From UHGV virus genome UHGV-1428471: a stretch of 24,250 nucleotides of DNA; one strand, 5' to 3'. The position numbers were made by a program. The DNA is from a virus. Positions 1 through 6,000 of the stretch are shown here, in pieces (position 1 is the stretch's first letter; each line of letters begins with the position of its first letter).

Positions 1-3000
1 CCGCGCGCTTGATGCGTTTATTGAGGGGATGACGCTGCATTTTGTCACCGACCGTAAGCCGCTATCGCGCGAGGAGATTTTGAGGATGGTTGAGAGGGTT
101 GCAGGGTAGTAGATAAATTTTAGATAACAAAAAACCCATTTATGTAAACGGGTTAATGAAAACAATAAGTTACAGTAAAAACAATAAGTTGGGTTGGTGG
201 TCAGTGGTGGTTATTACGGGGTAATGCCAACCGCTGCCGCCACTTTGTCGCCACTTGGCAATGTTGCCAGAGGATTGAAACGGAGCGCCGTTTCCAGATG
301 ATCCGGTGCCAGATGTGCGTAACGCATAGTCATTTTTATATCGTGGTGTCCGAGAATTTTTTGTAAGGCCAGGATGTTTCCACCCGACATCATGAAGTGC
401 GCCGCAAACGTATGGCGCAGAACGTGTGTCAGTTGACCGCGAGGGAGCACGATAGACGTTTTTTCCAAAACGGATAAAAATTGAAAATAGCAGTCTGTGA
501 AGAAATTGAACCCATCAAGCGCCATGATCTCTTCGTAAAGCTCTTTACTGATAGGGATGCTTCTGTTTTTCTTCCCCTTCGTTCTTACAAAGGTAATTCG
601 GTATTTGGTCACTTGCGAGCGGGTAAGATTTATTGCTTCTCGCCAGCGTGCGCCTGTGCTTAGGCATATCTTGACTACCAGTGCCAGAATTGGGTCCTGA
701 CGTTTGCAATCAGCCAGCAGTTCAACAATCTGCTCATGGGTAAGCCATGCCATTTCTTTTTCTGCGATGGTGAATTTTCGCATGTTCTCCAGTGGGTTCG
801 GATACGACCATTCGCCCAGGCGGGATAGTTCGCTAAAAACACTACTTAGATAGCTTTGCTCCAGGTTAATGGTGACCGGGCTTGCTCCTTTCTTCCATTT
901 CTCGCTGAAGTAGATCTCTCCTGTCAGGCGTTTATCTCTATAGTGGGCAAACATTTTAGAGGTGAGATCGGTTGCAAGGGGATTGCCCAGAGCGTCAACC
1001 ATCAACAGCAGTTTGTCATAGACATGCTGCCCAGCTGTCAGAGATTTACCATGTAGTTTGAACCATAGCTCAACCACGTCTTTCAATGTCCGACGATCCA
1101 CTGGTTCGCCCAGCCAGGGCTTTGCTTCGGTTTCTTCCATCGTGTGACGCTCAAAAGCCAGAGCTTCGCCTTTAGTGGCGAATTGTTTACGCACACGACG
1201 CCCACTACGTCCGGCGGGGTAACATTCGCAAAGCCATTTCCCTGTGGTGAGTTTTCGTACTGCCATAAAGAAGCCCTCATATCAGAGGGCTAAATTTAAC
1301 TGTGCTTATATACAGTGGTCAATGTATGATTTCATTAAAACAGACAAGGGTGTGCTATAAATCTGCTCTTAAATTATTTTCAGGGTCATTAGCGATATTT
1401 CTTTGTGAATTATTAACTAAATCAGAAAATGTATTATCTCGGTCGTTAGATTTAGTTAATCCAATATTCGTATTTGTCGCTTCTAATTCAAGTATTGATG
1501 ACTCCATCTTCTGAATAATGGCTACACTATCTATAAAATAGTCGAAAATATATTGAAATGATACTGTGGGGCTTTTCCCATGAGCGAAATCATTTCTGGC
1601 TCTATTTAAAGATTTCAACGAATCACGTAATTTATTTGAATGCGGATCGTTCTTGATTTTGTCCTTAAAGTTGTTACACCAGTTATTATCAAATGAACCA
1701 AGTGCCTTACAAATATTATCGTAATTAGGGTTCATTGAACTATTTCTGAATTTTTCATCAATGAATCTTTGTATTTGTTCACTATGTTGATCATATTTAT
1801 GATCGCTAATGATTGTTTTGAAAGAATATTCAATGGTTCCGCAGGTTCTAATAATTGAATATCGTGTTAAATATTTAACAATAGTTGTAGTGGGGCCAGA
1901 AGATTCTATCATCTTCTCTATACTCTCAAGTTCCTTTAAACAATCTATAATGCTATTTTTAGCATTATTATTAACGATATTGAATGCCATAAAGAAACTC
2001 CAGTGCCATTGAAATTCTTCCATGTATATTTTCTATCTGCATTGTACCAGATGTGATATGTGACCGAAATGTCTGATTTTGTAGTAACTCATTTCTTTTA
2101 TGCTCTAGATCGTTAGTGTTTATATCTTCACCTGAATTTAATGCAATGGATGTTGCGACATATAATGCATCAAAAATGGTTGGATAAAAACGACGACGTA
2201 TACGTGATGGATCTGATTGGATTATATTAAAGAATGCATCTGGTCCTATATTATCATGAATAAAATTAATGGTGTTTTCAAAATCGGTTTTAATGGTGTC
2301 GATCATGTCAGAGGTGTTATTTGCTTTATCACCCATATATTCATTAAGGAGTTTTTTTAGCGAAATATTTGCTGGTTCATGACTCTTTATTTTCTGCGTG
2401 TTAAGAGCCAAGCCTCTTAGAATGAATTCCATATCTCTCATTCGTGCATCTGGTTTATTAGAACCGAATAAAGTACGCCATTTGATATTATTGTTTAGTT
2501 CTATCAATAGAGTATTTAATTTCCCTTGATATACGCAATTACGTATTTCTTGAGCCATTAGTGAACGTCCACCAGTATTTATACGCTCAAAAATTTGATA
2601 TAGGCTAGTATCATCGTTCGACGGAACGGTTTGCTCAAAGATTATAGCGTGTATAGTTGTTGAGCGAATTTTCTTTTTTTCTGAAACTGTAAGTTCATTA
2701 AAGGCCTTACCACGCCATTTTGCATTAATTTTTCTACTATCGGAAAGTTTAAAGACTCTACTATCTTTTGACCATATACCTGTCACATAATCATAGACAG
2801 TCATGATTCTCTGAAAACCATCTATAATGAGTTTGTTTTCGTCAGACGTATTTGCTAAAAAAATACTCGGAACAGGAAGACCTAGCAATAATGAGTCTAT
2901 AAATCTACTGGCTTCGACTTTATCCCAAACATAATTTCTTTGAAGTTCTGGTTTCTGAAGTTCGCCCTCATCATACATTGTAATAAGTTCTCTAAAAGAT

Positions 3001-6000
3001 AAATCGGCCCCCCATGAGTTTATATTGTATAAATCATCATTTGAGTAAGAATCGTTCTGTTCTTCTTCGATTATCTCTATTGTGTCCTCAAGAGAATTAT
3101 TATTGATATAATTGCTGTCAGTCATTTTAACCTCTAACATTATTAATGGATAATACGATCTTTGCAATAAATTCGATTTCGTTTATTGAACATTCAAAAA
3201 CTATGTTTTTATTTTTTACTTGAATTTTTTCATTAGGTAATTTAGTGATTGTTCGAATACTGATATCTCCATCAATACCAACGATCCACTCGCCATCTAT
3301 AATATTATTGAATCTTTTTTCACAAATGTAAAAGTTATTTACATTTTCAATCAAACAAGGAAATATCGTATTTTCAGGTAACAGATTTTTATCAAATATC
3401 GAGTTCCCGCTCTCAATTAATTTTGCATTATTTAGAGTAAACTTTGGTATATTTATACAGTTTAAACTGCTATTTTTTTCTATTTTATCTCCTTTCCCAA
3501 AGGCTAACCACGTGATGGATACTCCTGTTTCGATAGCACACTGAATTACCCAATCAGCAGGAAAAGTATCACGCATATATCGTGTGGCTAACGTGCTTTT
3601 TGAAATACCAAGGTGATCAGCTAAGGCTTGACGTGTCTTGTAACCGTAAGCTTCAACAATTCGTTCTATTACTGCTTTTCCTCCATGAGTGAAATTCATG
3701 TGGATTTCATTATCGAACAGAGTGGGGGAAGAGTGAACTTTGTCGCAAAGTCCATCTTCGGTTTGTTTTTCAGCATGTTGTTCTAGTGAAGAAGATGACA
3801 TTCTTTCTTTAACACCTGAACCAAATGCTAGCCATTCAATTGATGCGCCTGTCTCCATCGAGCAGATAACAACCCAATCTGCTGGAAATGTATCGCGGGC
3901 ATATCTGTTAGCCATCGTGCTTTGGGAAATACCTAGGTGATTACAGAATGCCTGGCGTGACTTGAAGCCATAAGCCATGAGGATCCGCTCAATTACTTTC
4001 TGACCACCGCGATTCTGTATGACAGCGGCTTTCATATCGTCATTCATATGGCGAAATGTGAATTTTTGAGTTGACATATTCTTTATGCGAACCTATTCTC
4101 CGTTTTGTGATGTTGTTATCACGATTAAAACCAGCTCACCACAAGCTAAAAGGAGATGTTGCATCATGACCCCTAACATTTCAATAACTCTGAATACACC
4201 ACACGTCACAATCGAGCGTTATAGCGAACTTACTGGTCTTTCAATCGACACAATCAACGATATGCTGGCAGATGGTCGCATCCCTCGGCATCGTCTTCGT
4301 AAAGACAAAAAAAGAGAAAAGGTAATGATCAACCTTGCTGCTCTTACCGTTGATGCACTTACTGATTGCAATGTTGTATTCAACTAGTTCCATTTTGGGA
4401 TGTATCAGGGGTGTCGACTATGTTTGATTATCAAGTTTCCAAACATCCACATTTTGATGAAGCATGTCGTGCATTTGCATTGCGCCACAACTTGGTGCAA
4501 CTGGCAGAACGTGCAGGCATGAAAGTGCAGATTCTGCGGAACAAGCTGAATCCAGCTCAACCTCATTTATTAACCGCACCAGAAATCTGGCTGCTTACCG
4601 ATCTGACTGAAGATTCAACGCTGGTAGATGGTTTTCTGGCGCAGATTCACTGCCTGCCATGTGTACCGATTAATGAGGTAGCAAATGAGAAACTGCCGCA
4701 TTACGTCATGAGTGCAACCGCAGAGATCGGGCGTGTTGCTGCAGGTGCGGTATCTGGCGATGTAAAAACCAGTGCAGGTCGTCGTGATGTTATCAGCAGC
4801 ATTAACTCTGTAACACGACTGATGGCGCTGGCGGCTGTTTCATTGCAGGCCCGTTTACAGGCTAATCCTGCGATGGCGAGTGCAGTTGATACCGTGACTG
4901 GCCTCGGTGCTTCATTCGGTTTGCTGTGAGGTGCTTATGCTGACGAAAGAACCATCATTTGCATCGCTGCTGGTAAAACAAAGCCCGGCAATGCACTACG
5001 GTCACGGCTGGATCATGGGTGAGGATGGTAAACGCTGGCATCCGTGCCGTTCACAAGATGAATTGCTGGCAGAACTATCTACGAAAAAACGGGGGAACAA
5101 ATGGCTATTGAAGGCGCTGCGGCGACTGTTCCATTAAGCCCCGGTGAACGCCTGAATGGACTTAATCACATAGCGGAATTAAGGGCGAAAGTTTTTGGCC
5201 TGAATATTGAGTCAGAGCTTGAGCGGTTTATTAAAGATATGCGTGATCCACGGGATATCAATAACGAACAAAATAAACGAGCACTGGCAGCCATATTCTT
5301 TATGGCAAAAATTCCGGCTGAACGTCATAGCATCAGCATCAATGAGCTGACCACTGACGAAAAGCGGGAGTTGATTAAAGCAATGAATCATTTTCGTGCA
5401 GTGGTGAGCTTATTTCCCAGACGGCTAACCATGCCGAATTAACCAACTAATGAAATTAATGGCGTAAACCCGCCGAGCATCCCTTTATCTAAATTCAGGA
5501 GAATTGATTATGCGTAATATTGAAATCCTCACGACTAAAACCGGACCGGATGATGCTGGGCTTAATATTTTACTGACAGAGGCTCGTCTGGAAGAACGCC
5601 GGGCAAGGGCTGAAGCAATGGCAGCTCGCCTTGATAGCCTGGCGTGTCATATCTCATCCCGTCAGCTAAACCACGTGGAAGCGGCAGAACTGCTGCGTGT
5701 GACTGCTGAAGCAATCCAGAACGAAGCGCAGGAGATCCACTAATGGCTGATGCAATGGATCTCGTACAGCAGCGCGTTGAAGAAGAACGCCAGCGCCATA
5801 TCCGTGCTGCCCGTGCCAAAACACCGGGCGTGTCTCGCGTGCTTTGCATTGAGTGTGAAGCGCCAATTCCGCCAGCACGCCGCCGTGCCATTCCGGGTGT
5901 GCAGCTTTGCATTACCTGCCAGGAAATTGCAGAGCTGAAAGGCAAACATTACAACGGAGGTGCTGTATGAGCACCATCCTGAAATGGGCGGGAAATAAAA

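Follow-up and report, generated by a model that had tools for sequence, protein, structure and literature searches.

What are two AT-rich genes doing between a temperate phage's repressor and its integrase? The question is raised by UHGV virus genome UHGV-1428471, a stretch of 24,250 nucleotides that we refer to in its entirety as the window. Its left 4.1 kb constitutes the lysogeny arm of a 186/P2-like Escherichia coli prophage, inserted beside rcdA as judged from RefSeq context, and an earlier note, made from the sequence alone, had singled out the two genes, called A and B here, as a candidate prophage-encoded defence system. We conclude that the A-B pair is quite probably an anti-phage defence pair of the PD-T4-2 type, carried by the 186/P2-like prophage as accessory cargo. 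This conclusion draws on the same Pfam families and PADLOC models as those of the validated PD-T4-2 system, on the coupling of A to B across phyla, on invariant catalytic residues, and on the defence cargo found in the corresponding slot of sister prophages. The defence function that the note had offered as the natural hypothesis is thus supported, by both the PD-T4-2 architecture and the slot cargo. Its view that a split DUF262 and HEPN pair was uncharacterised does not stand: PD-T4-2 was validated in 2022, the operon had been noted in 2013, and the hotspot was published in 2022 and 2026.

Gene layout of the lysogeny arm

All of the genes concerned lie on the minus strand, in the order CI (4077 to 3127), gene A (3125 to 1971), gene B (1990 to 1355), an 88-nt spacer and int (1266 to 214). 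The features referred to below are as follows.

3127..4077, minus strand: CI repressor gene, 316 aa; first in the leftward lysogeny operon and the slot's upstream anchor; PF07022 (in two stretches) and PF16452; RefSeq 'phage repressor protein CI'
1971..3125, minus strand: gene A, DUF262 (GmrSD_N), 384 aa; ATG at 3123-3125, TAA at 1971-1973; assigned from Pfam, PADLOC and homologues
1355..1990, minus strand: gene B, RiboL-PSP-family HEPN, 211 aa; ATG at 1988-1990, TAG at 1355-1357
1267..1346, minus strand: int-upstream element, the downstream border of the cargo slot; defined by alignment of cargo variants, a terminator-like match and its fold
214..1266, minus strand: tyrosine integrase, anchoring the slot on its downstream side; Pfam Int_N and Phage_integrase, and RefSeq context

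The description of A and B as two co-oriented, overlapping, AT-rich genes at 1355-3125, between CI and int, agrees with our coordinates and with a GC content of 0.32 for the module, where the window as a whole has 0.51 and its late region 0.57. Both open reading frames (ORFs) are intact. The start of gene A at 3125 is indicated alike by the RefSeq annotation and by the N-termini of homologues; a single nucleotide lies between its ATG and the CI stop codon (3127-3129), and the sequence AGAGG precedes this ATG, just upstream and within the 3′ end of CI. The longest ORF for gene B would start at 2023 and encode 222 aa. Homologues instead all begin at MxFNI, which is encoded from 1990, and GGAG lies 7 nt upstream of the ATG there. 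Given that the homologues start at the position equivalent to 1990, the 222-aa ORF is probably not the real product. With this start, the two genes share 20 nt (1971-1990).

Domain content of proteins A and B

In a Pfam profile search, the sole significant match of protein A is to GmrSD_N/DUF262 (PF03235, E=2.7e-26), and protein B matches HEPN_RiboL-PSP (PF18735, E=2.6e-19); both matches clear the gathering cut-offs by a wide margin, and neither protein matches DUF1524 or HNH. The combination that had been read from motifs, a DUF262 protein lacking its nuclease half and an Rx4H HEPN protein, is therefore what the profiles return. The motifs themselves were all located by a motif scan: QRNYVW at 2925-2942 and DGFQR at 2808-2822 in gene A, and the Rx4H motif RNDFAH at 1580-1597 in gene B. 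In two sets of protein A homologues (17 and 38 sequences), D102, G103, Q105 and R106 of DGxQR and Q62, R63 and W67 of QRxxxW are invariant. Likewise, R132, A136, H137, Y44, G51, E54 and L128 are invariant among 78 homologues of protein B, with N133 and G138 nearly so.

The PADLOC models extend this picture. As the check proposed in the earlier note, they show that PD-T4-2_A and PD-T4-2_B match the two proteins: PD-T4-2_A aligns with protein A at 2.1e-55 (186 bits, model positions 14-360 of 363), and PD-T4-2_B with protein B at 1.4e-8 (33 bits, model positions 9-145 of 168). Protein A also matches NsnA (1.4e-65, model positions 21-380 of 385). The HEC-05, HEC-06 and SspE models cover just the first ~60-130 residues of its DUF262 region, and a weak match to REase_II (1.2e-11) is confined to that region as well.

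The C-terminal half of protein A is predicted to be helical. No nuclease fold was found in this well-modelled half by AlphaFold2 (AF2) prediction and Foldseek, and a Foldseek search of the PDB with the protein A model returned nothing significant, SspE being at rank 7 with E=1.8. Protein B is predicted to fold as a HEPN bundle, and its nearest structural matches are the HEPN toxins of HEPN-MNT toxin-antitoxin (TA) systems. Sequence searches of the PDB gave a marginal BrxU match for protein A (E=0.07) and no match for protein B, and thus no solved structure of a close relative. In PHROGs, protein A belongs to phrog_2598, to which no function is assigned there, and protein B has no family; NCBIfam has no match for A, B or CI. 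Among 50,697 deposited phages searched by tblastn, neither protein has a close relative, the best match of protein A being 34% identical over half of the protein.

Protein B ends in a low-complexity tail of 45 residues (~167-211, encoded at ~1358-1492), which more than 90% of homologues lack and which is modelled by AF2 with a predicted local distance difference test score (pLDDT) of ~50. The usual homologue is ~163 aa long, and the tail, of ~45 aa, is likewise extra in comparison with PD-T4-2. Enterobacterial copies of protein B, confirmed prophage ones included, carry differing and variable Ala/Glu-rich tails, for a total length of 177-235 aa.

We propose, from these matches, that protein A may act as an NTP-dependent DNA sensor or regulator and that protein B may be the RNase effector.

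A and B form a conserved two-gene module

Relatives of protein A were collected by a scan of one genome per species, which found 258 genomes with close relatives at 50-70% identity, and 80 of these loci were fetched. The relatives span Proteobacteria, Bacteroidota, Firmicutes, Cyanobacteria, Planctomycetes, Acidobacteria and one archaeal metagenome-assembled genome. A homologue of B lies directly downstream of A in 78 of the 80 loci, with 27-54% identity and aligned to residues 1-166; of the two loci without B, one has a truncated match to A, and the contig of the other stops ~100 nt beyond A. Overlap of the two genes is seen in 64 of 77 loci. A conserved third gene was not found among the 80 loci, nor is a cognate methylase consistently linked to the pair in them, the commonest neighbours being a C5 methyltransferase (8 loci), Vsr (5) and integrases (4), together with parts of restriction-modification (RM) systems. 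The pair is thus a strictly conserved, self-contained two-gene module.

The same clade also occurs in E. coli on plasmids of 3.9-14 kb, which carry a DUF262 and RiboL-PSP HEPN pair whose A protein is ~55% identical to that of the window. On one of them, NZ_AP027804.1 (3,959 bp), the pair is at 2078-3781, accompanied by a VbhA-family antitoxin gene as well as a gene for replication. Within prophages, the identical slot position, from CI through A and B to int, is seen in diverged relatives, one from E. coli (83% identical) and one from Serratia (75%).

Variable cargo between cI and int

The comparison of the int-cI junction across prophages that the earlier note had called for shows that A and B are accessory cargo. 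The module is present in just 10 of 5,426 complete E. coli genomes, all of them 99.7-100% identical, while 1,328 E. coli genomes match part of an int-cI-cII query with other cargo or none; of the E. coli genomes with a match to the prophage region, more than 99% lack the pair. Sister prophages at the same attB carry, in its place, HEC-01 (an AAA ATPase and a DUF4276 protein), PD-Lambda-1 (DUF4041; 'SNIPE associated' in some RefSeq records), a KAP NTPase (PDC-S20), a DUF4747 protein with a hypothetical protein, a 324-aa hypothetical protein, or merely a 63-aa ORF. The cargo genes begin 0-20 nt past the CI stop in every case examined. At the other end, the int-upstream element (~75-85 nt) is kept in all cargo variants aligned, and is found at 80-90% identity in 212 further genomes. 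Hence, the slot between cI and int takes variable cargo enriched in defence systems, validated or candidate (HEC-01, PD-Lambda-1 and PDC-S20), and its borders in the rcdA-integrated 186-like lineage of E. coli are set at base resolution by the CI stop and the conserved int-upstream element.

Within this element, a GC hairpin at 1272-1291 and the U-rich run after it immediately precede the int ATG, with a fold of -15 kcal/mol and z=-3.3. From its sequence, the hairpin may terminate or attenuate read-through, or else mask the ribosome-binding site of int. Its 3′ arm, GAGGG, is the only Shine-Dalgarno-like sequence there, and in three related prophages (labelled L096, L099 and L100) the stem is preserved by a different sequence. 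The element also holds an inverted repeat, ATGTATG...CATACAT, and a promoter-like TTGACC-18-TAAATT.

Two of the alternative cargoes merit a separate description. In L096 (1143-2799), the slot holds the DUF4747 protein and a 201-aa protein, neither with a PADLOC match; in L100 (1848-2822), it holds the 324-aa hypothetical protein. The DUF4747 pair and the 324-aa protein are candidate sources of undescribed defence genes. A second cargo site lies between int and the prophage end, and was seen in two related prophages (L097:136-1119 and L098:41-1269), one of which has a DUF4917 protein there and the other a Panacea-domain protein with a hypothetical protein. This second site agrees with the 'integrase-att' hotspot of a 2026 survey.

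Similar arrangements have been described elsewhere. A cI-integrase hotspot is known in Vibrio K139-like P2-related phages (Rousset et al. 2022), and among P2 hotspots, 'integrase-primase' accounts for 8% and 'integrase-att' for 3% of P2 systems (PMC13586616, 2026). Like the window, lambda rexAB, the K139-like cI-int hotspot and the P2 integrase-primase hotspot have defence cargo in or beside the repressor transcription unit, and share with it the feature of swappable cargo between conserved anchor genes. The proteins encoded by lambda rexAB and by the cargo of the P2-type hotspots, however, differ from A and B.

Predicted expression of the module

Placement of the pair in the lysogeny operon, with probable co-transcription with the repressor, had been put forward at the outset, and the layout bears this out. 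From 4077 down to 1355 the minus strand has no terminator-like site, the first being the hairpin at 1291-1272. Given the 1-nt and overlapping junctions, the lack of a terminator-like site in between and the known lysogenic operons of 186 and P2, it is likely that cI, A and B are co-transcribed from the lysogenic promoter. Promoter-like matches as such are at chance level, with 14 found versus 14.3 expected in shuffled sequence, and we claim no promoter inside the module.

Relation to PD-T4-2 and other DUF262 systems

PD-T4-2, from strain ECOR65, was described as 'DUF262, HEPN' and validated against T4 on a plasmid; its deletion in native ECOR65 brings back T4 plaquing, and HHpred assigned PD-T4-2A to PF03235 and PD-T4-2B to PF18735 (Vassallo et al. 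2022, PMC9519451). An operon of this kind had been recorded before as 'Ribo L-PSP-HEPN ... operon with ParB' (Anantharaman et al. 2013). A 2023 review and a 2025 analysis both place PD-T4-2 among the DUF262 systems without DUF1524, and the DARNA preprint, which concerns PD-T7-3, merely cites it. We compared the window pair with PD-T4-2 through the PADLOC models PDLC04027/04028 and the length of the seed ORFs, the seed being RCO39066.1 and an unannotated partner, at QOYX01000002:338334-339873. The two have in common a DUF262 protein (PF03235) without DUF1524 and a RiboL-PSP HEPN protein (PF18735), encoded in the same orientation with A first, in E. coli, and both PADLOC models match the window proteins.

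Several observations nevertheless weigh against equating the window pair with PD-T4-2, or against the role that we assign to it. In PADLOC, NsnA outscores PD-T4-2_A for protein A. All the members of the window clade that were scored reach 160-190 bits (A) and 18-33 bits (B) on the PD-T4-2 models, which is moderate, and the seed ORFs span 1,540 bp versus 1,771 bp in the window. Because of these moderate model scores and the differing seed span, the window pair appears, by sequence, to belong to a sister clade of ECOR65 PD-T4-2 with the same architecture. Anti-T4 protection has been shown for ECOR65 PD-T4-2 only, and PD-T4-2 itself is 'largely uncharacterized' as to mechanism (2023 review, 2025 analysis). 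The DUF262 half of protein A was modelled by AF2, with a 38-sequence alignment, at a pLDDT of ~30 and is unusable. Protein A is better conserved than B across phyla (50-70% versus 27-54% identity to the window proteins), which is unusual: it would be odd if A were a fast-evolving sensor, and it reverses the usual pattern. Finally, transcription of the pair from the lysogenic promoter is deduced from the DNA sequence alone.

Other known systems share parts of this arrangement. Menshen (NsnABC; Millman 2022; PMC12065111) provides the best model for protein A, with a ParB-DUF262 domain and a C-terminal 'ParBDB' DNA-binding region, and the logic proposed for it, a sensor feeding an RNase effector, is the one that we propose for the window pair. 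Menshen, however, has the ABC ATPase NsnB (AAA_15 and DUF3696) and NsnC, whereas the neighbours in the window are CI, the HEPN gene and int; since NsnB and NsnC are absent, the pair is not a Menshen system. GmrSD, BrxU and SspE resemble protein A in an N-terminal DUF262 with DGxQR and QRxxxW, although the first Q of their DGQQR is F or Y throughout the window clade. In these proteins, DUF262 binds and hydrolyses NTPs and governs the recognition of modified DNA, and DUF1524 cuts the DNA (2023 review). They carry a DUF1524/HNH DNase, while the effector in the window would be a separate RNase-type protein; the absence of DUF1524 excludes the pair from the GmrSD group. As for the HEPN-MNT TA systems (SO_3166/SO_3165, PDB 5yep; 7ae2; 8xdj), their HEPN proteins are 9-15% identical in sequence to protein B, and their partner is an MNT nucleotidyltransferase, whereas here Pfam gives no nucleotidyltransferase match and the partner encoded upstream is a DUF262 protein.

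DUF262 genes followed by a small gene also occur in accessory slots of other temperate phages (L004:140-2015; L102:2459-4362; L101:2501-4212). In Peduovirus P2_4B2, the DUF262 partner is HEPN_MAE_28990, and the pair is in hotspot 1; in Klebsiella phage ST16-OXA48phi5.4, the pair lies downstream of the tail-fibre genes, and in lambdoid phage vB_EcoM-689R6 it adjoins int, the partner having no PADLOC match in either case. As candidates for the PD-T4-2 seed, all three pairs were rejected: their PD-T4-2_A scores are below that of the window protein, and their partners miss PD-T4-2_B.

Possible mechanism and alternative explanations

A transcript running from cI through A and B would let the lysogen express both proteins constitutively. 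In the proposed mechanism, protein A, with a ParB/Srx-fold DUF262 NTPase domain and an NsnA-type helical C-terminal domain that is probably DNA-binding, would survey DNA and sense a cue of infection, which might be the modified DNA of T-even-like phages. This would lead, through an NTP-dependent switch in A, to the licensing of B, the Rx4H site of which is expected to be completed by dimerisation. Once licensed, B would cleave RNA (tRNA, mRNA or rRNA), with the result that translation is shut down and phage production blocked, the price probably being that the infected cell stops growing. For this specific route from sensor to RNase we see an even chance, based on the roles of DUF262 in GmrSD, BrxU and SspE, the role proposed for NsnA, the chemistry of Rx4H HEPN proteins and the invariant residues. 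What we infer here comprises co-transcription with cI, the order from sensor to effector, the trigger, the RNA targets, and whether immunity is abortive or direct. A fuller version, in which an unusually conserved sister clade of PD-T4-2 uses an NTP-gated DUF262 DNA sensor or clamp to license a minimal HEPN RNase directly, and so confers constitutive abortive immunity on lysogens, is possible but we hold it only tentatively and would sooner expect some part of it to fail. To our knowledge, such direct licensing of a HEPN RNase by a DUF262 sensor has been shown for no DUF262 system.

The enzymatic roles could also be divided differently. In a restriction-like scheme with two nucleases, A would act on phage DNA as a ParB-like DNase or clamp, B would be an accessory RNase on phage transcripts, and immunity would be direct. 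Such a scheme would suit A as the better conserved, enzyme-like partner, and it recalls the treatment of ParB/DUF262 as a DNase domain partnering HEPN in R-M-like operons (Anantharaman et al. 2013); the REase_II match (1.2e-11) and the C5-methyltransferase (8/80) and Vsr (5/80) genes that are the commonest neighbours point the same way. We nevertheless consider it unlikely, as characterised DUF262 domains are NTPases and sensors and DNA is cleaved by DUF1524, which is missing here, the modelled C-terminal half of A shows no nuclease fold, and no cognate methylase accompanies the pair consistently. Another unlikely account, in our view, is that of a TA or addiction module, with A as antitoxin and B as HEPN RNase toxin, which would stabilise the prophage or plasmid and provide defence as a by-product. 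Protein A is large (374-384 aa), highly conserved and NTPase-like, with invariant catalytic residues, and is neither a small labile antitoxin nor an MNT protein; moreover, PD-T4-2, with its homologous architecture, is strongly anti-T4 in its native strain, and the neighbours across phyla are RM and defence-island genes. These points outweigh, for us, the HEPN-MNT toxins that are the structural neighbours of B, the tight gene overlap in the style of a TA operon, the 3.9-kb plasmids on which the pair lies beside a VbhA-family antitoxin gene, and the retention of the module in a degraded prophage with IS66 in its portal gene. TA and defence roles are, in any case, not mutually exclusive.

A function outside defence is barely credible. 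ParB-fold proteins do work in partition, and the genes do sit in the lysogeny operon, which would fit a role in partition or in the control of lysogeny, if A and B are not simply inert hitch-hikers. There is, however, no ParA or parS partner present, and the patchy distribution (missing from more than 99% of the matching E. coli genomes, in which the slot holds other cargo) and the pair's presence in many phyla outside phages make a role in the phage life cycle very unlikely. Both ORFs are, moreover, intact and at least 99.7% identical in all 10 genomes (100% in several), with their catalytic residues conserved. We thus retain the reading of A and B as a defence pair of the PD-T4-2 type.

Other features of the prophage and its relatives

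The CI of the window has tandem helix-turn-helix domains, at residues 22-96 and 132-204 (65% amino acid and 70% nucleotide identity), ahead of a single C-terminal domain. The 186-type CIs of sister prophages have 187-198 aa, while long CIs (297-314 aa) recur, with other cargo, in L094, L096 and L100. Because long CIs recur in related prophages, the 316-aa CI looks like a distinct immunity type and not an artefact. The possibility that its AT-rich C-terminal domain was imported along with the module was rejected, since this part of CI is rich in AT in every relative examined.

The int-B-A-cI block is 99.7-100% identical to the 10 complete genomes, whereas the whole window has ~92% identity to those prophages at 83-90% coverage; therefore, the lysogeny and defence block is shared among mosaic prophages. 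In strain 504239 (NZ_CP025859.1, 4591000-4617000), the prophage is degraded, with IS66 in the portal gene and the capsid-to-tail genes deleted, and retains intact cI, A, B and int; the module there is identical to that of the window.

The classical P2 hotspot lies at 9236-10903 of the window, between a replication gene (6821-9235) and the portal gene (10904-11959), with a GC content of 0.39-0.45. It contains only a DinI-like gene (9516-9821) and small ORFs at 9287-9577 and, on the minus strand, 10014-10349, without Pfam match. The tail-gene hotspot near 20410-20764 is essentially empty in the window, and L100 has a 591-aa DUF262 protein at this place. Scanning the window for Rfam families and for tRNAs gave no match.

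Implications

The literature already has the architecture, its role in defence and the hotspot; what is new is an apparent sister-clade member in a well-delimited slot. As a discovery, the pair is hence incremental, and its value lies in the mechanism of the family and in the defined cargo slot. It offers a well-delimited PD-T4-2-like example whose natural expression is predicted from the operon layout, and the alignments yield a clean list of invariant residues for mutation. With its two-gene conservation across phyla, the pair may serve as a compact model for how a DUF262 NTPase could control an RNase.

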